Part shown: positions 13,163 to 63,691 of the stretch, in pieces
Position numbering within the stretch: the stretch's first letter is position 1
Layout: each line of letters starts with the position of its first letter
Source: Alphaproteobacteria bacterium
Lineage (GTDB): Bacteria > Pseudomonadota > Alphaproteobacteria > UBA828
Length of the DNA stretch: 64,000 nt
Assembly (NCBI GenBank): GCA_965214705.1
Contig: OZ243972.1
Location: 1,888,001-1,952,000 of the forward strand
Reading direction: 5' to 3'
The notes under the pieces: generated by a model
Told to the model about the DNA's origin: nothing
Database searches by the model: none
The model's input: the letters and a program-made list of their open reading frames with translations, nothing else
Translations under genes and position numbers: made by a program

Positions 13163-16100
13163 CTAGAGGCGCATGTGCTTGCCATGGTGCCGTCCATGTT
13201 GCTGGTTCAGTTCGACCCGTCTCTGCTCGAGCTCCATCTCCTGGGCTTGCGTCTTGGACCAGCGCTCTTCCTCGTCATCCCGGAATGCGCGCCATCGCGC
13301 GAACGCGGTGAGTTCGGCCAGCGAAAGGCCGAAATTCCGGCAGGGCTCGTCGTCCGAACGCCAGAGTTCGCGAAGCGTGCAAATGTCCTCCGCTTCGGTC
13401 TTCCCCGCCGTTCTGTCGACCACCTCCAGCTCGACCTGCACGACCGTCGGGCGGCTCAGGCGCGAGCTCTCCGGCGCAGCCGTTTCCAATCGGCCGACCT
13501 CGCTGCACCGCAACCGGTCGCCGCTGGTGAGATCCCGTGAGCAGTCGAGCGGATAGCTGTCCGGGGGTTCGGGCCACTGGCGCGCCCGCTCTGCCTGCCA
13601 GAGCCTCTCGTCGCTCCACTCCGCCCGAAGGACGTCGCAGCCCACGAGCCTCAGCGCGGCCATTCCTGTCACCGGCTCTTCGGCTGTGCGCCCCGTCGCC
13701 GCCGCAACCCATTCGAGCTCCACCACGTCGTTGTGGGCGCATCCGCCGGTCCGTCCGGGCTGGAGCACCACCGCTTCGCGTTGCGGCCCATCGTCCGATA
13801 GCCGCAGCGTTATCCGCTCGCCCGCGAGCAGCGGTTCCTGCCCCCTCCAGGGTCTGGTGAATGCATGTGAGGCGCCGGGGTCACGAAGCCGTGCCAGCTC
13901 CGCGTCCACCATCTCCGCGATCCGGTCCTCCTCCAGCCCTGGAATGGCTTTCCGCTCGCTTGCGTGCCGAAGTCCTTGCTCGATGCGGTCAAGCATATCC
14001 GGGCGGTCTTGCCAGCGCTCCCGGGTGTCCTCGTCCAGTATCCATTGGACGTCTTCCTCGAACCGGAGGCTCCGTTCCTGCCACGCCGGCCATTCCGACA
14101 GCAGGGAGCGGGGAACGTCCTCGCGCGTCGCGCGTTCCTCGAGCCGGCGGTATTGCTCGTCTACCCGGTTCGCTTCCCGGAACAGGCCTTGGAATGTCAT
14201 CCATTCGGCTGACAGGGCGGCATGCTCGTCGATCTCGGCCTGCAGCCGCCGCCGGGCCGCTTCTTCCAGGTCCGGTTCCCTGGCCAGGTGCTCCGCTCGG
14301 GCGATGGCCTTGCCGTACCCCTCGTCACCCACGGGCGAGAAGCCCTGCGCCAGCGCATTGGGCTTCGTTTCCTCGATCCGGTTCATCACCGAGACGAAGC
14401 GGTCGAGCAGACGGTGTCTCTCCATCCGCTCCAGCGCGGCAGTCAGCGTTTCCCTGCCCTTCGGGATCCGGTCGAGATGGGGAGCGTAGGTGTCTTCGTC
14501 CTCCTGGATCTTGCGTCCCGCGGTCAGCAGCTTCGACGAAAAGTCGGTTAGGGACCGGTAGCCGGGCAGGTCGGTGACGAGGAAGTCCGGGGCCTGCCGG
14601 GCGTGCCGCCTGGCTTCTTTCTCCAGGGTGTCCCAGTACTGCCCATGTTGCCCGGCTCCCTGGAGAAAACCGTCGAGGGTGGCGCGCTCCTTGCCGAGCC
14701 GGCGGTCGTAGTCCAGCACCCGCTGCGCCATCTCCCGGGCCTGGTCCGGCAAGCCCTGCCGTTGGCCAAGCGCGCGGGCCTCGTCGACGAACTCTTTCCA
14801 GCCCGGCAGATAGAAGGCGATGACGGTCCCGGCCTTCGCACGCTCCGCCATCGCCAGACGCTCCTGGAATACTCGCGTCCAGGCCAGATCGTGGTCGCCG
14901 AGTCGGTCGAACCGTTCGACGGCGGTCGCGATCTTCCCCGCTTCCTCCTTCAGCCGGTCGAGATGGGGCCGCCACAAGTCCGGATCTTCACGCTTGGACT
15001 CCGGCTCTTTACGCATGGCGCGCCAACTTTCGCCTACCTCTCCGCAACGCGCCAACCAGTCGGCATAGCCTGTAAGTTCGGTGGGCGGGGTGAACTTGGG
15101 CGGGCCAGCCGAGCGGGCGCGGTCCTCCAGCGTCGTCCGCTCGTCCAGAAGCCCGGCCGCAGAGGCATGAAGCGCGACGATTGCCGCCTTCCGTTCTTCG
15201 TCTGCCTTTGCCTGGTCGAGGACCTCCTTGGCCGCTGCCAGTGCCCATGCCGGAAGGGGGGACAGCCTGGCGAGTGTCGTGGCCCGCTCGACGAGATCGT
15301 CATGGCCTTCGGCGTAGAACGAAATCGTGCCGTCCTCCGCGGCCTGCGCCGCCACCTCGCGGCGCCGCGTGTCGAATGCGAGGACCGCGTCGTCGACCGC
15401 CAGGAGGTCGGCCAGCTCCCCGAGGCGCTCGGAGATCGTGCCGCCGGCCTCGCCCGCACGCTCGCCCAGCTCGGCGAGCAGGACCTTGCCGTTCGCCGAC
15501 AGACGCCCCGACATCTCCCGCCACTCCGGGTAGTCTTCCAGCCCGGCAACCGGGCTCTCCGCTGCCGCCCCTTCCAGGTCGCGCCTCCTTGCGTCATGCG
15601 CATCGAGCAGCCCGAGAAACTCCACTGCCGCCCTGTCCCCTTCCCGGCAGGCGTGGTCATAGGCGAGCAGCCCGTCCACGACCTCCCTGGTCGCGGCCGG
15701 CAGGTCCGGATTCCCGGCAAGCTCCCGCGCGCCCTCGATCAGCGCCCCGTAGTCCTCCATCAGAAACACCACCGTGCCCTCGCGCCGCGCCCGCCGTTCC
15801 AGCGCCTCCCATCCCTCGCGCAGCGTCCAGACCGGCTCATCATCCGCCAGCAGCCGGACAATCTCCTCGGGCTCGAGCTCGAGCGGCGCGTCGATCGCCT
15901 CGAGCGCCGTCGGCCGCTCCCCGGTGTTGTCGGCCAGAACCTTCACCAGCTGCTCGGCGTTGTCGGTGAGCACCACCGCCCGGTCCCGCGCCCGGCTGAT
16001 CTCCACGTAGAAGGTGGACTGGTCGGTGAGCGCGCCGTAGCTCGAATCCAGCACCGCGATCACCCCGTCCGCCGTGCTCCCCTGTGCGCCGTGCACGGTC

Positions 16101-18610
16101 GTGCTCCAGGCGTGGTCGATATGCCGCAGCTGCGGATCGTCCAACCGCAGCGACAGCCGCCGTCCGTCCGCCAGCCGGAACCGCACCCGGCCCTTGCCGA
16201 TCCCCTCCACCTCGGCCCGCTCGCCGTTGATGAGGGACCGCTTCCTGTCGTTCCGGGTCCAGCGGATCCGGTCGCCCGCGCGGATCTCGATGGAACGGGT
16301 CTCGTAGACGTCGAGCTTGTAACGGATCGAGGTCGTCGGGCGGATCGAGCGCGGCTTGCCGTCGGGATGCAGCAGCATCACCCGGTCGAAGTCGAACCCG
16401 GTCACCGTCAGAATCTCGTCCTTCTCCAGGCGGTAGTTCTTGAGAGTCTGGCTGAACACCACCAGGTCGCCCTCCCGGTAGTTGCGCCGGTCGCCCTTCT
16501 CGGCCCGCGTCATGCCGAGGCTGACCAGGCGCTCGATGCGGAGCGGCTTCCCCCGCAGCACTCCCTCATCCGCCAGCGCCTCCCGGACGGTCCTGTTGAT
16601 CTCCTCCCTCAACTCGTGGGTCGGCGCGACCAGCAGGGTGTTGTCGCGGGTGGCAGGGTCGAGCGCCAGCCAGGTCCGCCCTGCCATCTCGGCGAGCTCT
16701 TCGAGCGCCACCTCGTGCACGCTGCCGCCCAGCAGCTCCACCGCCTCGCCGGGATCGCCCGCCACAACCGCCTGCACCGCCGCCCGCAGCTCCGGGGTGC
16801 GCTGGCGTTGGATGTCGTGCATCGCCGCCGTCGTCATTCCCGCCCGCTGCAGCAGACGGAACGGCTGGCCCGCCTCCACCGCGCGGAGCTGGCCGATGTC
16901 GCCCACCAGCACCACGCGGGCAACGTCGAGCCTGCCCGCGGCCCGCAGGAGCGAACGCATCTGGTCGGTCGACACCATCGAGGCCTCGTCCAGCACCAGC
17001 ACCGCGCCGCCGAAGCGCTCCTTCAACCTTTCCAGCGCTTCTCCCTGCAAGCCCGCCGCCCGGCACCGCGCCAGGAACCACTGCAGCGTGCGGGCATGCA
17101 TGCCGGTCTCGCGCCCCAGCACCGCGGCCGCCGCAGTCGAGGGCGCTAGTCCGAACACCGGCTTCTCCCCGGCAAGCGCCCGGACCTGGCGCAGCATGGT
17201 CGTCTTGCCGGTCCCGGCCCGGCCCTGCACGCCGACGACCCGGTCGTGCGCCAACAGGATCGTGCGAACCGCCTCCTCCTGTCCCTCGGTGAGCCCGGCG
17301 CCGTCGAGACGGGCCGCAACGTCCTTCTCCCCGGCCAGCGCCTCGCCGGCACCGATCCCCGCCTTCATCATGGCGATCGTCGACCGCTCCGCCTTCAGCG
17401 CGCGGTCGGTGACGAAGGCCCTGTCGGCGCGCCAGAGCTCGGCCGCGACCAGGTGGCCGTCGCGGACCAGCCAGGCGACCGCGTCCCGGATATCCCCGAG
17501 CGAATGCCGGCCCGGCGAATGGCCCAGAGCCAGCGCCTCGAGCGCGTGCTCGGAGAAGACCGATTGCCGCTCCTCAAGCTGCCGCATGCAGCGGCGCACG
17601 ATCGCAAGCGCCGACCGGCCCTCCGGTAGCACGATCGGCTGTCCGGAGCGCGCCACCGCGGGTGCCATGTCGAGGCTCAATTCCCGTGCGCGCTCCCGCC
17701 ATCGCTGCTGCAGCTGCGCCCGCACCGGCTCCGCCTTCCGCTTGCGTGTCGCCAGCGTCGCCACCTGCATCCTGTCCGTGCTGCGGTCCCAGCCCTTCTC
17801 GTCCACATAGGCCAGGATCTCGTGCCGGCGCGTCGAGAACGCTTCCCGCAACTCCCGGCCGTAGCCCGCGAGCTCGAAGCTCGGCAGACGGCCCACCATC
17901 GCCGGCTCGATCGAATAGCCCTTCGCTATCAGCTGCCGCGCCAGCCGGTCGCGGTAGTACGCCCCGATCAGCCGCGCATTGCGGTGCAGCAGCGTCGGCT
18001 CCACGCTCTTCCACCGCCCCTCCCGGTCCCGGGTCATGTTGGCGATCACGGCGTGAGTGTGGAGCTGCGGATCGAGGTTGCGGCTCGCGATGTGGCGGAA
18101 CAGCGCCGCCACCATGCAGGGTGCCTTCACCCGCGGCCGCCTGCCGGTGGCGGGGTCCCAGCCCCGGGTCTCCAGCAGCGAACCCTCGATCCAGTCGAGC
18201 GTCTCGCGCACCGCCGCATCGTGCGCCCGCCTGACCGCCCGGTCGCCCAGCGGGTGCTCCTTCGTCGGCAGAAGCGCCGCCAGCGACACCGACTTGGGAG
18301 CCGAGAAGGTGATGTCGAAGCCCGGACGATGCTCGTGCTGCCCGTCGCGCAGGCGCCCCAGCCGAGTCCTGGTCCCGATCACATGGCCCTGAAGAAGCCT
18401 CTCGAAGGCGCGCGCCCCGACCGGCTTGCCGGGATGCAATCCCAGGACGACCGCGCCCTCGCCATGCCAGGTGCTGGCGTTCCGGTGCTCGGCCCGCTTG
18501 GCCCGAAGGTCCGCCGCGCCCTCGCCCGGCCTCAGATAGTAGCCGGCGTCCTGGCGGAAATATTCCGAGGTGGCAGAGGAAGACGTCAGGTTGCGGACCG
18601 TCGCGACCAT
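13163..18610 (-). CDS. MobF-family conjugative relaxase-helicase (TrwC/TraI-like) with long C-terminal extension
   Basis: EYF...GYY tyrosines, GFDITFSAPKSVS, DPQLHTHAV (HUH), FSTRR, Walker A GRAGTGKT, LDEASM, LVGD..QL, TVHGAQG, FYVEISRAR. Confidence 0.93.
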   Translation of the reverse strand: MVATVRNLTSSSATSEYFRQDAGYYLRPGEGAADLRAKRAEHRNASTWHGEGAVVLGLHPGKPVGARAFERLLQGHVIGTRTRLGRLRDGQHEHRPGFDITFSAPKSVSLAALLPTKEHPLGDRAVRRAHDAAVRETLDWIEGSLLETRGWDPATGRRPRVKAPCMVAALFRHIASRNLDPQLHTHAVIANMTRDREGRWKSVEPTLLHRNARLIGAYYRDRLARQLIAKGYSIEPAMVGRLPSFELAGYGRELREAFSTRRHEILAYVDEKGWDRSTDRMQVATLATRKRKAEPVRAQLQQRWRERARELSLDMAPAVARSGQPIVLPEGRSALAIVRRCMRQLEERQSVFSEHALEALALGHSPGRHSLGDIRDAVAWLVRDGHLVAAELWRADRAFVTDRALKAERSTIAMMKAGIGAGEALAGEKDVAARLDGAGLTEGQEEAVRTILLAHDRVVGVQGRAGTGKTTMLRQVRALAGEKPVFGLAPSTAAAAVLGRETGMHARTLQWFLARCRAAGLQGEALERLKERFGGAVLVLDEASMVSTDQMRSLLRAAGRLDVARVVLVGDIGQLRAVEAGQPFRLLQRAGMTTAAMHDIQRQRTPELRAAVQAVVAGDPGEAVELLGGSVHEVALEELAEMAGRTWLALDPATRDNTLLVAPTHELREEINRTVREALADEGVLRGKPLRIERLVSLGMTRAEKGDRRNYREGDLVVFSQTLKNYRLEKDEILTVTGFDFDRVMLLHPDGKPRSIRPTTSIRYKLDVYETRSIEIRAGDRIRWTRNDRKRSLINGERAEVEGIGKGRVRFRLADGRRLSLRLDDPQLRHIDHAWSTTVHGAQGSTADGVIAVLDSSYGALTDQSTFYVEISRARDRAVVLTDNAEQLVKVLADNTGERPTALEAIDAPLELEPEEIVRLLADDEPVWTLREGWEALERRARREGTVVFLMEDYGALIEGARELAGNPDLPAATREVVDGLLAYDHACREGDRAAVEFLGLLDAHDARRRDLEGAAAESPVAGLEDYPEWREMSGRLSANGKVLLAELGERAGEAGGTISERLGELADLLAVDDAVLAFDTRRREVAAQAAEDGTISFYAEGHDDLVERATTLARLSPLPAWALAAAKEVLDQAKADEERKAAIVALHASAAGLLDERTTLEDRARSAGPPKFTPPTELTGYADWLARCGEVGESWRAMRKEPESKREDPDLWRPHLDRLKEEAGKIATAVERFDRLGDHDLAWTRVFQERLAMAERAKAGTVIAFYLPGWKEFVDEARALGQRQGLPDQAREMAQRVLDYDRRLGKERATLDGFLQGAGQHGQYWDTLEKEARRHARQAPDFLVTDLPGYRSLTDFSSKLLTAGRKIQEDEDTYAPHLDRIPKGRETLTAALERMERHRLLDRFVSVMNRIEETKPNALAQGFSPVGDEGYGKAIARAEHLAREPDLEEAARRRLQAEIDEHAALSAEWMTFQGLFREANRVDEQYRRLEERATREDVPRSLLSEWPAWQERSLRFEEDVQWILDEDTRERWQDRPDMLDRIEQGLRHASERKAIPGLEEDRIAEMVDAELARLRDPGASHAFTRPWRGQEPLLAGERITLRLSDDGPQREAVVLQPGRTGGCAHNDVVELEWVAAATGRTAEEPVTGMAALRLVGCDVLRAEWSDERLWQAERARQWPEPPDSYPLDCSRDLTSGDRLRCSEVGRLETAAPESSRLSRPTVVQVELEVVDRTAGKTEAEDICTLRELWRSDDEPCRNFGLSLAELTAFARWRAFRDDEEERWSKTQAQEMELEQRRVELNQQHGRHHGKHMRL

Positions 18611-19560: not shown

Positions 19561-19623
19561 AACTCCTTTCGGCTTGCGTGCCGTCCCCATCACTCATACG
19601 CTCGTTCTCGCTAACGACCACGG

Positions 19624-19784
19624 GTGCCCGCTGCGTCGGGCCGCCCGTCGAATACAACAGCCGATCCCGGTGCGGGGTAGCTCCCCGTACCTAGGTGAAT
19701 AGGCGGGGACCTCACACACCCGTGTGTCGTTAGCAACGGCCCGGCACCCGCCGGGTCGAGCGAACCGACGCGGAGGGTGTCATG
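19624..19784 (+). promoter_or_regulatory. Conserved structured 5' leader, copy A (candidate cis-regulatory RNA)
   Basis: Shares CCCGGTGCGGGGTAGCTCCCCG, GGTGAATAGGCGGG, GCAACGGCCCGGCACC-GCCGGG and TGTCATG with 62942-63100. Confidence 0.6.
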
Positions 19785-20351
19785 AAAATCAGACATATTT
19801 CCATGCTGGCGATCCTGTTGGTCGCCTTGTCGGCGTGCAAAGCCGTCACGCTCGAGGAAGCCACCGTGACCCAGCCCACGTTCGGCATTGAGGCCGAGGA
19901 CTGGGGCGTCCCTGCGACCGACGAGCTCCGTCAGGGTGCCTATCACGCCCCGACACCGGCGACGCACCCGGTGGCCGCGGTCATCAACACACAGGACCTC
20001 CATGCACAGCTCATCGGTCCCAACCCGCCGGTGACGATCAACGTCCTGTCCGGCAAGAACCGGATTGCGTCGATCCCCGGCTCGATCTGGCTGCCTGCCG
20101 CAGGTCAAGGTGGTACGTTCGACGATAATATCCAGACGTACTTGGCGTCGACGCTCGGGAACCTCACCGACGACGATCTCGCGCAACCGATCGCGGTCTA
20201 CTGCTTGGACGCCAACTGCTGGCTGTCCTACAACGCCGCCCTGCGTCTCCACGCGCTCGGCTACGAGAACCTTTACTGGTATCGCGGCGGCATCGCCGCA
20301 TGGACGGCAGCAAATCTCCCCGCCCGAATGACCACGGCGTACAAGCAATAG
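19782..20351 (+). CDS. Rhodanese-like lipoprotein (CXXCW-motif type)
   Basis: Lipobox LSAC; HAPTPATHP, IPGSIWLP, YCLDANCWLSYNAA, GYENLYWYRGGIAAW. Confidence 0.8.
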   Translation: MKIRHISMLAILLVALSACKAVTLEEATVTQPTFGIEAEDWGVPATDELRQGAYHAPTPATHPVAAVINTQDLHAQLIGPNPPVTINVLSGKNRIASIPGSIWLPAAGQGGTFDDNIQTYLASTLGNLTDDDLAQPIAVYCLDANCWLSYNAALRLHALGYENLYWYRGGIAAWTAANLPARMTTAYKQ

Positions 20352-59849: not shown

Positions 59850-61530
59850 GTAACTGCCCAGGTCGTCTGATTTGTCATTTTGGGCCAGTGAGTTGAGGCG
59901 TGTCTCGGTCGGAATTGGCGTAAAGGGGTTGACGGGAATTTCGGGAAATGACTCAACAGCGGCATGAGCAATCCCGAGTCGCCGCGCGGCCCTTCGACGG
60001 GGGCAGCGCCCGAAACGCCCGCACAGAAGATCGCCCATCTGGAAGAGGAGAACACCCGGCTTCGAGAGGAAAACGCTTGGCTTCGGCAGCAGAACGCGCG
60101 GCTGGAAGAGCAAGTCGCGCGTCTCGTCGAGCGCATCGAGGAGTTGGAGCGCCGTCTTGGCCTCGACAGCGGCAACAGTGGCAAGCCGCCTTCGAGCGAT
60201 GGGCTGAAGAAGCCGAGGTCGAAGCGGCGAACCCGAAGCCTGCGCGGCAAATCGGGCCGCAAGCCCGGCGGGCAGCCCGGCCATGAGGGCAAGACGCTGC
60301 GCCACCGCGATCACCCGGATCGGGTGAAGGACCACATGCCGGCTTCCTGCAAGGGATGCGGCTCGTCGCTTTTGGACGCGGCCAAGGCGGGAACGCCGGT
60401 CGCCCGCCAGGTCTTCGATCTGCCCGAGCCGAGCCCACTGGAGGTGACCGAGCACCGGGCGCATGCCAAGTGCTGCGGGCATTGCGGGACGGTGACGCGG
60501 GCGGCGTTCCCCGACGGGGTGTCGGCACCGGTGCAGTACGGCCCTCGCATTGCAGGCGTGGCGGTCTACCTTCAGCACGCCCACTTCCTGCCGGAGGATC
60601 GGCTGTCGCAGGTGATGGCCGAGCTGTTCGGCGCGCCGGTGACGGCTGCGACGCTGGCGACGATGAGCGAGAGGGCGGCAGAGCGGCTGCGGGACGTGGC
60701 CTCGCACATACAGGATCTGGCGGCGGGCACGGCGCGGGTGAAGCACATGGACGAGACCGGGTTCCGGATCGGCGGGCAGACGCAGTGGCTTCATGTGATC
60801 TGCACGCCGCATCTGGCGGCGTACCGGGTCAGCGGCAGGCGCGGCGCCTTGCTCTCGGGTGTTTCCGGCATCGTCGTTCACGATCACTGGAAGCCGTACT
60901 TTACGATGGAGGGTGTGGAGCACAGCCTGTGCAACGCCCATCACCTGCGGGAGTTGCAGGCTCTGGTGGACATCGAAGGGGAGGCCTGGGCTCGCCACAT
61001 GCAGCAGCTTCTGCGCCGGGCCAATCGCGCCGCCCGGATCGCACAGGACAAGGATATCGCCGTTCCGGCGAGGCTTGCGGCGCTGATCGAGCGCCGATAC
61101 GACGAGATCATTGCCGAGGCGTTGGCCTTCCACGAGAGCCAACCGCCGTTCTCGCCTGGCAAGAGGAAGAAACGCCGGAAACGACGGATCGGTCACAATC
61201 TGGCCTTGAGGCTGCGCGACCACAAGTGCGCGGTGCTCCGGTTCCTGACCGACCTCGAGGTCGGGTTCACAAACAACGAGGCCGAGCGCGACCTTCGGAT
61301 GATGAAGCTGCGCCAGAAGATCTCAGGCGGCTTCCGATCCGAGAAGGGGGCCGAGAACTTCGCCATCCTGCGCAGCGTCATCACCACCGCCAGAAAGCAG
61401 GGCTGGAACATCATCGAAGCCCTGATGAGCCCATCGGACCAACTCATCGCCACCGTCAAGTGCGCGTGAGCCGACGCGGCGAGAACTCCCCAACAGCGGA
61501 ATCATCCCCAGAAACAACCTGGGCAGTTAC
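59850..61530 (+). mobile_element. IS66 family element (single ORF, ISBst12-like) inside spacer 18
   Basis: Inverted repeats GTAACTGCCCAGGT / ACCTGGGCAGTTAC; 8-bp duplication GATATTGC (59842-59849, 61531-61538). Confidence 0.95.
59964..61469 (+). CDS. IS66 family transposase
   Basis: NSGKPPSSDG, KPGGQPGHEG, RQVFDLP, HMDETGFR, VHDHW, LCNAHHLREL, FTNNEAERDLR.MK..QKISGGFRS. Confidence 0.93.
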   Translation: MSNPESPRGPSTGAAPETPAQKIAHLEEENTRLREENAWLRQQNARLEEQVARLVERIEELERRLGLDSGNSGKPPSSDGLKKPRSKRRTRSLRGKSGRKPGGQPGHEGKTLRHRDHPDRVKDHMPASCKGCGSSLLDAAKAGTPVARQVFDLPEPSPLEVTEHRAHAKCCGHCGTVTRAAFPDGVSAPVQYGPRIAGVAVYLQHAHFLPEDRLSQVMAELFGAPVTAATLATMSERAAERLRDVASHIQDLAAGTARVKHMDETGFRIGGQTQWLHVICTPHLAAYRVSGRRGALLSGVSGIVVHDHWKPYFTMEGVEHSLCNAHHLRELQALVDIEGEAWARHMQQLLRRANRAARIAQDKDIAVPARLAALIERRYDEIIAEALAFHESQPPFSPGKRKKRRKRRIGHNLALRLRDHKCAVLRFLTDLEVGFTNNEAERDLRMMKLRQKISGGFRSEKGAENFAILRSVITTARKQGWNIIEALMSPSDQLIATVKCA

Positions 61531-61608: not shown

Positions 61609-62637
61609 GGCTCAATTCGCAAACCGTAGGCATGGCTTTGCCATCGCAGCCTCAAGGCAGGCTCTCGGCGATGGCTGATCGTCGAGTGCGATGAGATGGA
61701 ACCACCTCAGATAGCTGTCCAGGTACTTGGTGGCGATGCCGCGGCGGATGCGCAGAAAGCCCTTGATCTGGCTGTGGCGGCTGTTGACCGTCTGGATGTG
61801 CACGGCACCCCGGACCCGCTCCCCTGCAGAGCCGTTGATGCTCTCGTGAGGGATGTCGAGCGCGGCTGCGACGGGCGGATAGCAGCGGTTGGCGTCGGAG
61901 ACCAGCAGGGCATCCGGGGCGAGGACCGGCTCCAGCACCGCCTTCACGTTGTCTGCGTTCAGCGCGGGCAGGGTGTGGCTGAGGGTCTCGCCGCCACGGT
62001 CGGCGGCGACCAGAACCGGCACCTGCTCGCGCGAGAGGCCGCGTTTCTTGGCCTTGCCGCCGCGCCGGCGCGGCTTGCGGTCGAGCTTCCGCTGCCCCTT
62101 GCGGCTCTCCAGGACGAAGGTCTCGTCCGCCTCGACGATCCCGGCAAGCCGCTCCGGCGCCTGGCGGACCGCCGCCAGGAAGCGGTGGCGCCAGCGATGC
62201 GCCGTGCTCGGCGCAATCCCGCAGCGCGCGGCGGACGCCTTGATCGTCTCGCCCTCGGCAAGCGAGGCGCCAAAGGACAGCCAGCGCTCCTTGTGGTGCA
62301 GCCCAGACAGCGCCGTGCCCGTGAGCGCGCCGAACGTCCTCCCGCACTCCTTGCACCGGAAGCGGCGAAGACCCCGCGCCTTGCCCCGCGACACCGCCCC
62401 GCCGGCACCACAGCGCGGGCAGCGGCGCTCGTCATCCACGCCCAACTCGATCGCCGCCAGCGCGGACGCGCCCTCCGGTGGGTCCGACAGCACCGCCGCC
62501 ACATCGTCGCGCTGCGACGCCGTCAACTCATCGACACGCGAGAACCAGTCCCGAAACCGCTCGTGATCCATCTGTCTGACCCCCAAGGCAAATCGGGAAC
62601 AATCCTATCACAATGCCTACGATTCACGAATTGAGCC
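61609..62637 (-). mobile_element. IS1595 family element just after the last repeat
   Basis: Inverted repeats GGCTCAATTCG.AA.CGTAGGCAT; 8-bp duplication ATTATATA (61601-61608, 62638-62645). Confidence 0.93.
61612..62571 (-). CDS. IS1595 family transposase
   Basis: CPRC...FRCKECGRTF..LTGT, IVEADET, LVSD, HIQTVNSRHS, GIATKYLDSYL. Confidence 0.93.
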   Translation of the reverse strand: MDHERFRDWFSRVDELTASQRDDVAAVLSDPPEGASALAAIELGVDDERRCPRCGAGGAVSRGKARGLRRFRCKECGRTFGALTGTALSGLHHKERWLSFGASLAEGETIKASAARCGIAPSTAHRWRHRFLAAVRQAPERLAGIVEADETFVLESRKGQRKLDRKPRRRGGKAKKRGLSREQVPVLVAADRGGETLSHTLPALNADNVKAVLEPVLAPDALLVSDANRCYPPVAAALDIPHESINGSAGERVRGAVHIQTVNSRHSQIKGFLRIRRGIATKYLDSYLRWFHLIALDDQPSPRACLEAAMAKPCLRFAN

Positions 62638-62837: not shown

Positions 62838-62941
62838 CCGGTCACCGTGCCATCGGTCCCGCGCGTCGTCCAGTCCTTTCACGACCGCTTGACCGCATAT
62901 CAGTCCCGCCCCTACCCTCATCTCCGCAACTGTCAACGTAC

Positions 62942-63100
62942 GTCCCGCTTGCCGGGTCGCCCGCTGAATAAGCCCGAGACCCGGTGCGGGGTAGCTCCCC
63001 GCGCTTGGTGAATAGGCGGGACCCCTCGCGTTCGCGCGTTGATGGTTGCAACGGCCCGGCACCAGCCGGGACCGGGGCAACGGAGCGGGGGAATGTCATG
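62942..63100 (+). promoter_or_regulatory. Conserved structured 5' leader, copy B
   Basis: Homologous to 19624-19784 and ends at the ATG of the GIY-YIG gene. Confidence 0.6.
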
Positions 63101-63691
63101 GGAGTCGTCTACGTCCTGACCAACGAGTTGATGCCGGGTCTCGTCAAGATCGGTAACACCAGTCAGTCGGTCAGAGACCGGATAAGGTCCCTGAACGGCA
63201 CCGGGGTGCCTTGTCCGTACGACTGCGTCGCCGCGTGGGAGTTTGGGGATGCGAAGGGGGCGGAGCGCGCGATCCACCGGGCGTTCGCGGATCGACGCGT
63301 TAGCAAGAAGGAGTTCTTCAAGATGGACCCCGAACGGGCGGTGGCCATCCTGGAGCAGTTCGGACGGAAGGATGTCACCCCGCCCAAGGCGAGGGGGACC
63401 GGGTCGGAGGGCGCGGGTTCCCCGAAAACGAAGCGCAAGTTGTTCCGGTTCTCGATGGTCGGCATCGCGCCGGGGGAGACCCTGACCTCGGTCTGGGACG
63501 AGAGCGTGACCTGCACCGTGGTCGACGACCGGCGGGTCAAGTTCGAGGGCGAGCCGATGACCCTCTCGGGGGCGGCAAAGCGCGTCATCCGGGGCCGGGG
63601 CAAGAACTGGAAGTCCGTGGCGGGACCCGATTCGTGGTGCTACGGTGACCCGCCTTTGACCCTCAACAAGATACGGGACAAGAAGCGGTGA
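63098..63691 (+). CDS. T5orf172/GIY-YIG nuclease-like protein with RAMA-like C-terminal domain
   Basis: GVVYVLTNELMPGLVKIG.T, L.GTGVP.P, E..IH..F...RV..KEFF; C-terminal FRFSMVGI.PGETL...F.GE.MTLSGAA...GPDSW. Confidence 0.75.
   Translation: MGVVYVLTNELMPGLVKIGNTSQSVRDRIRSLNGTGVPCPYDCVAAWEFGDAKGAERAIHRAFADRRVSKKEFFKMDPERAVAILEQFGRKDVTPPKARGTGSEGAGSPKTKRKLFRFSMVGIAPGETLTSVWDESVTCTVVDDRRVKFEGEPMTLSGAAKRVIRGRGKNWKSVAGPDSWCYGDPPLTLNKIRDKKR

Follow-up and report, generated by a model that had tools for sequence, protein, structure and literature searches.

Introduction

In 5'-end-gated type I toxin mRNAs, as in synthetic cis-repressed or toehold riboregulators, a complementary stretch of the leader itself masks the ribosome binding site (RBS), and adding a competing strand or removing part of the 5' end alters activity. 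As described in PMC5320573 and PMC3858429, phages P1 and P7 encode an antisense RNA, C4, ahead of its target, with which it shares strand and transcript. Its tRNA-like fold is closed by a helix, P1, two short variable segments pair beside and over the RBS, and RNase P generates the mature 5' end by cutting at the 5' edge of P1; multi-copy C4-like sRNAs are reported in Acinetobacter baumannii. A further RNA, sRNA-Xcc1 (Rfam RF02221), was described in Xanthomonas campestris as a discrete RNA of 88 nt, by Northern blot and end mapping (PMC2996969), and its occurrence in integron cassettes is reported in bioRxiv 10.1101/2025.06.18.660453. Here we compare these systems with two leaders found in a 64,000-nt stretch of an alphaproteobacterial genome (contig OZ243972.1, positions 1,888,001 to 1,952,000), hereafter the window. 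Positions are those of the window, and all features lie on its + strand.

Results

As the first-pass annotation of this DNA had noted, two look-alike leaders precede unrelated genes. The 249-column alignment of copies A and B has a mean column identity of 79%, and TGTCATG closes both copies, its ATG being the start codon (19778-19784 in A, 63094-63100 in B). That annotation had the position right but the extent too short, as each whole element runs from a -35 box to the start codon, over 19574-19784 in copy A and 62889-63100 in copy B. The promoter-like part that it had seen upstream is common to both copies: by sequence, the copy A promoter (19574-19602) consists of TTGCGT (-35, 19574-19579), a 17-nt spacer and TACGCT (-10, 19597-19602), and that of copy B (62889-62918) of TTGACC (62889-62894), an 18-nt spacer and TACCCT (62913-62918). 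Promoters of the family, described below, have a TTGAC-type -35 and a YAnnnT -10. Transcription of copy A is predicted to start at about 19609-19611, and in 87/102 leaders the end of the -10 box lies 0-8 nt before the first paired base of a segment that we call U.

The RBS region of copy A (19763-19784) contains AACCGAC (19763-19769), the Shine-Dalgarno sequence (SD) GGAGGG (19772-19777), an overlapping GGGUGU (19775-19780) and the ATG (19782-19784) of a rhodanese lipoprotein gene (19782-20351), the product of which has a rhodanese domain match and a signal peptide and lipobox called by a crude rule. The 3' part of copy B (63065-63100) comprises a 3' hairpin strand, GCCGGGAC (63065-63072), a GCAAC (63077-63081) complementary to the GUUGC of the junction strand J5/1, the SD region GGAGCGGGGG (63082-63091) and the ATG (63098-63100) of a gene for a T5orf172/GIY-YIG-type protein (63098-63691; T5orf172, E 2.4e-16). 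A TrwC relaxase gene lies 1 kb from copy A, and IS1595 and IS66 transposase genes adjoin copy B.

A whole-genome DNA search located the element at 12 places at E <= 9.1e-8, 10 of them distinct, with two pairs of exact duplicates; one duplicate pair has no convincing open reading frame (ORF) behind it. The covariance model R1, built from the copies of this genome, matched 12 places at 93-125 bits (copy B at 112 bits) and one short form at 59 bits. The family is present in 19/20 searched genomes of the genus and in at least 103 stretches from metagenome-assembled genomes (MAGs) of at least seven phyla, its hosts being Alphaproteobacteria and MAGs of Acidobacteria, Chloroflexi, Gemmatimonadota, Planctomycetota and others. 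One Vicinamibacterales MAG carries four short-form copies inside 1 kb. Copy A had no blastn match among 72,556 plasmid records, and the genome-wide DNA search found no arrays and no spacing of the attC type. Metatranscriptome run X1 contains a small share of the sequence words; its contigs are those of a relative (11 differences in 74 letters) and cannot show starts or transcription. One 248-nt record among them covers 19635-19708 and 19828-19879 and has the first P1 base as its first letter.

Among 114 distinct leaders, 86 are followed on the same strand and within 75 nt by an SD and a start codon that opens an ORF of 60 or more amino acids. Conservation spans the promoter to the start codon, always in the orientation of the gene, with variable "platform" sequences behind a constant core, and no U-run terminator follows the long form. 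The cargo is heterogeneous, mostly lipoproteins and secreted proteins. Most of the 86 downstream proteins match no Pfam family, the rest fall into 35 families in all, and the commonest, Glyco_transf_25 (GT25) and TbpB_B_D, have only four members each; a functionally coherent set of controlled genes, as for a riboswitch, was not found among the 86. This mixture of cargo behind a promoter of its own fits the earlier suggestion of a portable expression module.

The constant core of copy A opens (19627-19643) with a segment "a" (CCCGC, 19627-19631), which a linker joins to the 5' strand of P1, GUCGGGCCG (19635-19643); this part follows an RNAalifold consensus, with P1 as in the RF02221 alignment. 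A constant arm (19644-19707) follows, made up of P2 (19644-19649 with 19702-19707, CCCGUC/GGCGGG), an internal loop in which GAAUACAACA (19650-19659) faces GAAUA (19697-19701), P3 (19660-19662 with 19694-19696, GCC/GGU) and P4 (19669-19677 with 19683-19691) with the loop UAGCU (19678-19682). After the variable P5 region the core closes (19737-19758, inverted repeat I6) with the P1 3' strand CGGCCCGGC (19737-19745), an RCCA-like ACCC (19746-19749) and GCCGGGUCG (19750-19758), which forms a 3' hairpin competing with P1. The core of copy B (62944-63064), placed by the R1 match and inverted repeats I3 and I4, has the same elements: "a" at 62944-62948, P1 (62951-62959 with 63052-63060), P2 (62960-62965 with 63015-63020), P3 (62972-62974 with 63007-63009), P4 (62983-62991 with 62997-63005; loop UAGCU, 62992-62996), the P5 region (63021-63051) and ACCA after P1 (63061-63064). 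Three hairpins picked out in the first-pass annotation find their place here, CGGGG-UAGCU-CCCCG as the tip of P4, CCCGGC-ACCN-GCCGGG as the 3' hairpin and the variable hairpin as P5. Two other proposals do not hold: the "short stem around GGTGAA" is the P3 3' strand (GGU) followed by the conserved unpaired GAAUA, and the GGUG:CACC pseudoknot has a non-pair at its variable position in 44/91 members, most commonly C.A (38).

Compensatory changes, which that annotation had proposed to look for among homologues, bear out its structured RNA leader. Over 79 relatives, 94.2% of cells are paired and 16/27 pairs have changed on both sides, and 0/500 shuffles reached the observed pairing. Covariation is strongest in P3 and P4, and variation in the P1 of the long form is almost only one-sided. 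An alternative 5' hairpin can form in copy A between CCCG and the CGGG of the P1 strand; the alignment of relatives contains compensated variants of it, and one relative, L064, keeps it while its P1 is broken. The P1 strands, J5/1 and the RCC that follows P1 are nearly invariant. The first P1 pair is G-C in 74/78, the preceding nucleotide, N(-1), is U or C in 79/106 leaders, and P1 is followed by R (99/107), C (92/107), C (100/107) and then A (61) or C (39). The unpaired nucleotides of GAAUA/GAAUA and UGCAA are highly conserved within the otherwise covarying scaffold. The 3' hairpin reaches -17.5 kcal/mol, compared with -13.0 and -14.2 kcal/mol for controls. P4 loops are palindromic (AGCU, GGCC, AAUU, GAUC, UCAUGA), and the family also includes short forms that lack P4. 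Judged by its sequence, the element is an RNA on the sense strand, because its helices covary and G.U pairs are common. The junction state itself rests mainly on homology to Xcc1, because P1 varies on one side and L064 breaks it.

At gathering thresholds Rfam has nothing within the window. The search proposed in the first-pass annotation gave RF02221 as the best match, to copy A, at 28.4 bits (E 0.0068, 501-nt search) against a gathering cut-off of 53 bits; copy A is the sole RF02221 match in the genome, none exceeding the cut-off. A relative, L065, scores 38.1 bits, and both alignments span the full model (1-87) and keep its order of P1, P2, P3 and variable hairpin. Reciprocally, R1 weakly finds 2/20 true Xcc1 loci (30 and 21 bits). 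On these sub-threshold but reciprocal matches we read the family, which the first-pass annotation could not assign, as a long, uncatalogued relative of sRNA-Xcc1.

Both RNAs have a three-way junction closed by P1, with the P2/P3 arm and then the variable hairpin, and the motifs AAUACAA, GRAAUA, UUGCAAC and CCCGGCACC are common to the two. Like the long form, Xcc1 is multi-copy (up to 6 per genome; 24/151 sampled genomes of the phylum over the cut-off) and adjoins a downstream gene on the same strand. The differences concern the score of the long form (28-38 bits on RF02221, under the cut-off of 53), its P3, which bears an extra helix of ~30 nt, P4, where Xcc1 has a GNRA tetraloop, and its 5' extension of ~27 nt (U and "a"), missing from Xcc1. 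Unlike Xcc1, the long form has no U-run after P1. Its cargo consists mostly of lipoproteins and secreted proteins, whereas Xcc1 precedes phage- or ICE-type genes, and RCC after P1 was counted by eye in only about 8/20 true Xcc1 members. Searches with the C4 model (RF01695) found nothing around copy A at E <= 10, nor in the 20 true Xcc1 loci at E <= 1. The family thus resembles C4 in proposed mechanism and in layout, with no sign of homology from RF01695.

Variable sequences are concentrated in U and in the P5 region. In copy A, U (19610-19626, GCUAACGACCACGGGUG), at the predicted 5' end of the RNA, pairs with 19717-19734 through inverted repeats I2 and I3, each 100% complementary; its partner comprises the P5 loop, the P5 3' strand and J5/1. 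The P5 region (19708-19736) itself consists of a pyrimidine-rich 5' strand, Y (19708-19718), the loop, and X with J5/1 (19717-19736, ending UAGCAA). In copy B, U (62926-62941, GCAACUGUCAACGUAC) pairs with 63033-63049 with several G.U pairs (inverted repeat I1, 13 nt, 85% Watson-Crick) at a duplex energy of -22.0 kcal/mol. The minimum-energy fold of copy A is closed by the U helix (z = -4.74), and its P5:RBS duplex has -20.5 kcal/mol; that of copy B pairs the P5 region with the RBS region.

Specificity was assessed by an alignment-free permutation test on duplex energies, in which the own partner of a leader is compared with the partners of other leaders, the leaders being related to one another. 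P5 is specifically complementary to the RBS region and to the U of its own leader. Against U the preference is pronounced (-26.9 kcal/mol for the own P5/J5-1, -13.0 for those of others; 0/10000 permutations as good). The helix has at least 12 bp in 107/107 leaders (median 17 bp), and own-partner pairing is kept at a U identity of only 27% among de-duplicated leaders; G.U accounts for 131/1849 U-helix pairs (7%). Against the RBS the specificity is modest, some 2.4 kcal/mol: for 30 de-duplicated leaders P5 gave -15.0 kcal/mol with the own RBS region and -12.6 with those of others (1/10000 permutations as good; P4 control 5550/10000), and a repeat on 47 leaders gave 0/10000. The RBS positions paired with P5 are mostly -19 to -5. 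Neither half of P5, tested singly against the own RBS, was significant (979 and 890 of 10000), and Y alone gave a weak signal (344/10000); Y keeps its specific complementarity to X (0/10000). There was no specific signal between U and the own RBS (6044/10000), nor between the RBS and the 12-nt 5' lead formed by "a" and the linker (716/5000), a segment too conserved for the test.

Xcc1, too, has a variable hairpin and junction strand whose sequence complements the RBS region of the gene behind it. Among true members P5 gave -18.6 kcal/mol with the own RBS and -14.1 with those of others (0/10000; control 6201/10000), and the 30 nt upstream showed no specific pairing with P5 (2176/10000).

Predicted folds depend on whether U is present. 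With U, the predicted fold has the U helix but no P1 in 73/84 leaders; when U is absent, the SD is paired into the motif in 57/84. The unpaired probability of the SD window, computed with energy models that are noisy on RNA of 65-70% G+C, is 0.47 when U is present, 0.28 for an RNA beginning at P1 and 0.49 for the platform alone, and this probability is higher with U in 68/80 leaders. The U helix and P1 cannot nest, nor is their connector long enough to allow a pseudoknot; as mutually exclusive pairings they imply that the modelled leader would have at least two states. New here are the P5-RBS and P5-U complementarity, the exclusion between U and P1, the same P5-RBS pairing in true Xcc1 and the RCC(A/C) after P1.

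Discussion

We propose, at a probability of roughly 0.55, that the leader is a translational gate, in which a junction would present an antisense P5, U would serve as its decoy and a C4-like OFF state would arise after processing. Each copy would be a self-contained expression module, with a sigma-70-type promoter, a folded 5' leader of ~170 nt and the RBS of the cargo. Its constant part could form a three-way junction of P1, the P2-P3-P4 arm with its GAAUA/GAAUA internal loop, and P5, and P5 with J5/1 would act as a variable antisense element for which three partners would compete. Pairing with the 5' strand of P5 itself would form the P5 hairpin, pairing with the RBS region of the cargo would involve both sides of the SD, and the third partner is U, which spans the first ~17-20 nt of the predicted transcript. 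U would occupy the antisense element of the primary transcript and leave the RBS as open as without a leader, presumably the ON state. The RNA would refold into the tRNA-like junction, where a P1 that begins with G precedes RCC(A/C), and RNase P or another, putative nuclease could cut at the 5' edge of P1 and remove U. The freed P5/J5-1 would then pair with the RBS region and lower translation, presumably the OFF state. The polarity could also be the reverse, with U favouring OFF through a Y:SD pseudoknot, because Y itself is anti-SD-like. The conserved GAAUA loops and the P4 loop are given no role in this gate.

The OFF step would parallel that of mature C4 in phages P1 and P7 on a target in the same transcript. 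Upstream same-strand segments complementary to the RBS region, a trait of C4, occur in the long form and in true Xcc1, and the G at +1 and RCC(A/C) after P1 in the long form would be compatible with a C4-type layout. The published descriptions of C4 on which we draw (PMC5320573, PMC3858429) include no 5' decoy pairing with its antisense loops, whereas the long form carries U; they place C4 before an antirepressor operon, whereas the long form precedes surface proteins. Unlike type I toxin mRNAs and toehold riboregulators, the long form has a conserved tRNA-like scaffold. U, its competing strand, is part of the RNA itself, and the module, together with its promoter, is reused before many unrelated genes.

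If the gate model is true, it would supply a mechanism for sRNA-Xcc1, a common family (24/151 genomes) of vague function, and tie it to the logic of C4. A built-in 5' decoy that keeps an antisense element masked up to processing would amount to a new kind of regulatory layout, and the expression of accessory surface genes would be linked to RNA processing. The long form, a much larger uncatalogued relative of Xcc1 with its own promoter, precedes genes for surface lipoproteins, secreted proteins, glycosyltransferases and nucleases, and its covariance model would annotate thousands of intergenic regions that are now blank.

A bolder form of the gate, which we hold only tentatively, makes it a portable, "addressable" translation timer, in which a tRNA-like antisense domain of Xcc1/C4 type with a 5'-end decoy would be armed by RNase P cleavage. 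Cargo would be translated only from fresh, unprocessed transcripts, or according to the load of pre-tRNAs on RNase P; the copy-specific triplet of U, P5 and RBS would prevent cross-talk among a dozen gates per cell, and leaders could pair among themselves through the palindromic P4 loops. On this view sRNA-Xcc1 would likewise repress in cis, in the manner of C4, instead of acting as a classical trans sRNA.

A ligand-sensing riboswitch, in which the junction with its invariant GAAUA/GAAUA and UGCAA would bind a small molecule or second messenger, shift the balance between junction and U helix and so set translation, seems unlikely to us. It would account for the highly conserved unpaired nucleotides in a covarying scaffold, the mutually exclusive pairings around P1, the constant core before variable platforms and the many copies per genome, a feature of second-messenger riboswitches. 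We rate it lower because the cargo is very mixed (86 proteins without a common pathway, top families of four members each) and P5, the switching part, is variable in sequence and antisense to its own RBS and 5' end, which needs no ligand. Relatives, moreover, sit on phage- and ICE-type genes, and Xcc1 is reported to accumulate as a discrete 88-nt RNA (PMC2996969).

The predicted ensemble is dominated by a U helix that starts at the predicted +1, and the P1 of the long form lacks two-sided covariation. Both would suit a constitutive leader without a switch, in which the helix protects the mRNA 5' end, as 5'-terminal stems are known to stabilise mRNAs, the Xcc1-like fold is inherited and P5:RBS pairing only dampens translation. 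It leaves unexplained the near-invariance of the P1 strands, RCC and J5/1, the specific complementarity of Y to X (0/10000) and that of the RBS region to P5, and we consider it improbable.

That the element is a stand-alone trans-acting sRNA, as Xcc1 was first described, with a P5 loop acting on distant mRNAs and only a positional relation to the gene, we regard as quite improbable. The 88-nt Xcc1 species reported from Northern blot and end mapping (PMC2996969) speaks for it, as do the duplicate pair lacking a convincing ORF and the clustered short-form copies of the Vicinamibacterales MAG. Against these stand the 86/114 leaders placed within 75 nt of a same-strand SD and ORF, the better fit of P5 to the RBS of its own gene than to other RBSs and the lack of a U-run terminator in the long form.

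An element that works as DNA, be it the end of a MITE or IS, an attC-like integron site, or the single-strand promoter or origin of a conjugative element, is very improbable: the copy number, long inverted repeats, neighbouring relaxase and transposase genes and the reported integron cassettes of Xcc1 (bioRxiv 10.1101/2025.06.18.660453) would agree with it, but the inverted-repeat arms are 27% identical between copies and nevertheless complementary, 7% of their pairs are G.U and would be A.C on the opposite strand, conservation follows the gene from promoter to start codon, and the plasmid and array searches found no match. The recombination or MITE role raised in the first-pass annotation therefore falls with these differing arms and one-stranded G.U pairing, and nothing points to the ribozyme-like RNA that it had also considered. 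A MITE or IS terminal repeat, tried as a candidate, was rejected, the inverted repeats not being conserved between copies and the element being gene-oriented. Occurrences of Xcc1 further include Xylella islands and APSE phage.

A structured leader family upstream of unrelated genes

The two leaders reported in the first-pass annotation, copy A (19574-19784, + strand) and copy B (62889-63100, + strand), are indeed similar, with a mean column identity of 79% in an alignment of 249 columns and with the start codon of both downstream (cargo) genes embedded in TGTCATG. Both copies are real, but they are not merely a pair: a genome-wide DNA search (7.9 Mb, 3 contigs) returned 12 places at E <= 9.1e-8. 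Two pairs among these are exact duplicates, leaving 10 distinct sequences. A covariance model of the long form, R1, was built on the 10 distinct copies and contains 27 base pairs in the constant helices P1-P4. On its own genome R1 recovered the 12 copies at 93-125 bits, together with an extra shorter form (59 bits) and one doubtful match (21 bits). Among 100 relatives searched, matches were found in 19 of the 20 that belong to the same genus (1-9 copies per genome), in none of 23 from other genera of the family and, sporadically, in 5 from elsewhere in the order or class. A degenerate pattern scan covering one genome per species yielded at least 103 stretches, of which 80 were listed. Going by MAG titles, Alphaproteobacteria were most numerous among the matches listed, including Defluviicoccus, Rhodobacteraceae and Thalassobaculaceae; also among those listed were Gammaproteobacteria and a Roseateles, Acidobacteria (Vicinamibacterales, Thermoanaerobaculia, Bryobacterales), Chloroflexi, Gemmatimonadota, Planctomycetota, Eisenbacteria and Binatia. 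Across own and related loci R1 gave 39 matches and across MAG loci 79, a total of 118 with 114 distinct sequences.

In the 79 MAG matches, standard pairs filled 94.2% of cells compared to 87.7% in shuffles, as counted in an alignment fitted to R1 and therefore biased towards the model. Sixteen of the 27 pairs changed on both sides, supporting the structured RNA proposed at first reading, and neither 500 shuffles nor any slid register approached the observed pairing. Covariation was strongest in P3 and P4, and variation in P1 and P2 was mostly one-sided (U.G / C-G / U-A). The leader is an RNA read on the strand of its gene. The P4 apical loop is usually UAGCU (19678-19682 in copy A and 62992-62996 in copy B, both + strand). 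Of 91 leaders, 70 have a palindrome of 4 nt in this loop, versus 22% of shuffled loops. Independent cases are few because 51 of the 70 share the identical UAGCU, and divergent members in family alignments A5 and A6 swap it for other palindromes (GGCC, AAUU, GAUC, UCAUGA). Such loops hint at loop-loop pairing between two leaders.

Several arrangements of copies were also observed. The duplicate pairs (C3:123570-123691 with C1:1161369-1161490, and C1:4027889-4028011 with C1:2114540-2114662) are identical including flanks and downstream genes. The members of a pair sit on separate contigs or far apart, in a genome with a listed contamination of 8.7%, and may represent large duplications or assembly redundancy. 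Just upstream of the minus-strand copy C1:1545721-1545871, positions 1545871-1545990 resemble by eye a partial tRNA gene of the opposite strand; if genuine, it would place this copy at the border of an island integrated at a tRNA. In a Vicinamibacterales MAG (L092:1376-2356), four copies of the short form, which lacks P4, occur within 1 kb, two per strand, at 30-54 bits. The gaps between them are too small for ordinary genes, and the group may be an sRNA-only cluster.

The variable hairpin is complementary to the ribosome-binding site of its own gene

We compared the variable hairpin P5 (5' strand Y, 3' strand X) with ribosome-binding site (RBS) regions (-20 to +3) by duplex energy, without any alignment. 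P5 paired better with its own RBS than with those of other leaders (-15.5 versus -12.8 kcal/mol, 82 leaders; 0/5000 permutations), also after similar leaders were collapsed to 30 (-15.0 versus -12.6; 1/10000), a set on which a same-length P4 control was null (5550/10000). The preference recurred on 47 leaders (0/10000). P5 is an antisense element. Y:X complementarity is specific as well (0/10000), and Y resembles an anti-Shine-Dalgarno (SD) sequence, so that the proposed switch may have either polarity. A purely trans-acting sRNA would be consistent with sRNA-Xcc1, a related RNA of 88 nt (PMC2996969), but the RBS matched by P5 is that of the leader's own gene.

P5 has a second, stronger partner in U, a segment contained in the 26 nt that precede the modelled core. 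U complements the loop and 3' strand of P5 and the strand between P5 and P1 (J5/1), all in the same leader. Pairing spans at least 12 bp in all 107 leaders and at least 15 bp in 93, with a median of 17 bp. Among 39 de-duplicated leaders, U favors its own P5 (-26.9 versus -13.0 kcal/mol; 0/10000, P4 control 1219/10000); since U is only 27% identical between these leaders, the pairing is kept by compensation. G.U pairs (131 of 1849, at least one in 75 leaders) fit a sense-strand RNA and not a DNA cruciform. The arms lie at 19610-19626 and 19717-19734 in copy A and at 62926-62938 and 63037-63049 in copy B, all on the + strand. The promoter-like part noted earlier as shared holds up, with a TTGAC-type -35 and a YAnnnT -10 at a fixed place; in 87 of 102 leaders, the pairing of U begins 0-8 nt after the end of the -10. 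From this position, the transcript is predicted to begin with U.

Alternative states and a proposed C4-like logic

The strands follow the order U, P1 5' strand, P5 and J5/1, P1 3' strand, so that the U helix crosses P1. Their connector of 0-2 nt cannot span a 17-bp helix; the two are thus taken as alternatives. The U state is compatible with a hairpin between CCCG in the 5' extension and CGGG in the 5' strand of P1, and by eye this hairpin is compensated in divergent relatives such as L064, L127/L109, L075, L083, L141 and L042. The P1 3' strand can pair, compatibly with the U state, with GYCGGG just 3' of it; the excess in stability is only moderate (-17.5 versus -13.0 and -14.2 kcal/mol in controls). 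Folded with U, 73 of 84 leaders formed the U helix and not P1; folded without U, 57 of 84 paired the SD into the motif. The SD window has a predicted probability of being unpaired of 0.47 with U, 0.28 for an RNA starting at P1 and 0.49 for the platform alone, openness being greater with U in 68 of 80 mutually related leaders. Copy A is predicted to adopt the U state (z -4.74) and copy B to pair P5 with the RBS region (z -3.14). These predicted folds agree with the view, based on strand order and connector length, that the leader has two or more mutually exclusive states.

A similar layout is found in the antisense RNA C4. As described in PMC5320573 and PMC3858429, C4 of phages P1 and P7 is tRNA-like in shape and cut by RNase P from a longer transcript at the 5' edge of P1, and its variable segments a' and b' pair with a target on the same transcript, b' covering the RBS. 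The leader matches this arrangement of upstream antisense segments and same-transcript RBS target, and the C4 model (RF01695) found no match on copy A or the Xcc1 loci. The first pair of P1 is G-C in 74 of 78 long-form sequences, 79 of 106 have U or C immediately before P1, and P1 is followed by R (99 of 107), C (92), C (100) and then A (61) or C (39). This tail is RCCA-like; RCCA sequences play a role in recognition by RNase P.

Based on the C4-like layout, the G-C start of P1 and the RCC(A/C) tail, we propose that RNase P, or else another nuclease, would remove U. While attached, U would act as a decoy for P5; its removal would arm the antisense element formed by P5 and J5/1, with the ON state first and OFF after arming. 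This regulatory reading is a testable inference, whereas the family, its covariation and the three partners of P5 are well supported. A constitutive stabilizing leader would account for the 5' helix but leaves unexplained the conservation of the P1 strands, the RCC tail and the Y:X complementarity (0/10000).

Relationship to sRNA-Xcc1

No Rfam family matched the 64-kb window at gathering thresholds. At permissive thresholds, copy A matched the full sRNA-Xcc1 model (RF02221) with 28.4 bits (E 0.0068) against a cut-off of 53. P1, P2, P3 and the variable hairpin are collinear, the motifs AAUACAA, GGUGAAUA and CACCC occupy matching places, a more distant relative reached 38.1 bits, and some members without P4 resemble Xcc1. 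True Xcc1 is also frequent and multi-copy, exceeding the cut-off in 24 of 151 sampled genomes of the phylum (up to 6 copies per genome), and R1 gave weak matches at 2 of 20 such loci (30.3 and 21.4 bits). Given these weak matches in both directions, the element is filed as an uncatalogued long relative of Xcc1 and not as a member. It is a real RNA, a new long Xcc1-type variant with C4-like logic.

At the 20 true Xcc1 loci P5 likewise prefers its own RBS (-18.6 versus -14.1 kcal/mol; 0/10000, control 6201/10000). At many of them, by eye, J5/1 pairs immediately upstream of the SD and 7-8 loop bases match perfectly between SD and AUG. Unlike in the long form, P5 of true Xcc1 has no upstream partner (2176/10000 permutations). 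Xcc1 cargo consists of phage- or ICE-looking genes, Bro-N-like or Rha-like by eye only. In Xanthomonas cassettes, Xcc1 lies upstream of symE according to a 2025 preprint (bioRxiv 10.1101/2025.06.18.660453), which does not settle on a mechanism. The literature searched contained no paper casting Xcc1 as a cis-acting C4-like regulator or describing the long-form leader, and two papers naming both Xcc1 and C4 keep them as separate families. Several true Xcc1 loci have tRNA genes nearby, and at L181, some 1 kb away from a true Xcc1 copy, two TwoAYGGAY RNA matches narrowly exceed the cut-off of 43 bits (2372-2494 and 2791-2857; 45.1 and 44.5 bits).

Cargo genes and genomic surroundings

Behind 86 of 114 distinct leaders, an SD and the start codon of an open reading frame of at least 60 aa follow within 75 nt on the same strand, usually at 25-45 nt; four leaders have no open reading frame. 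A crude rule assigns a signal peptide to 75 of 114 products and, to 43 of these, also a lipobox, often of LAACGGGGG type. Among the 86 proteins Pfam recognized 35 families, led by Glyco_transf_25 (4), TbpB_B_D (4), rhodanese (3), subtilase (2) and T5orf172 (2), with most proteins matching none. They share no common Pfam function, consistent with the unrelated genes first noticed behind the two copies. A riboswitch, which would account for the invariant unpaired GAAUA/GAAUA and UGCAA, fits poorly with such mixed cargo; the U-decoy model assigns no role to the symmetric GAAUA/GAAUA loop.

Copy A precedes a rhodanese lipoprotein gene and is flanked by a Calx-beta gene on one side and, 1 kb off on the other, by a gene for an 1815-aa TrwC-type relaxase/helicase (13163-18610, - strand). 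Copy B precedes a T5orf172 protein gene, adjoined by IS66-family (59964-61469, + strand) and IS1595-family (61612-62586, - strand) transposase genes. A large part of the window resembles mobile DNA. A DNA-level mobile or recombination element, raised in the first-pass annotation as a recombination module, is nevertheless disfavored by arms that diverge yet compensate, G.U pairs on one strand, fixed orientation to genes and the absence of blastn matches to copy A among 72,556 plasmid records.

In many cargo lipoproteins (e.g. L031, L050, L123 and L140) the lipobox cysteine is followed by a glycine run (LAACGGGGG...), and four of this type match the TbpB beta-barrel family. Judged by sequence, the cargo lipoproteins look like a large and diverse set of surface lipoproteins.
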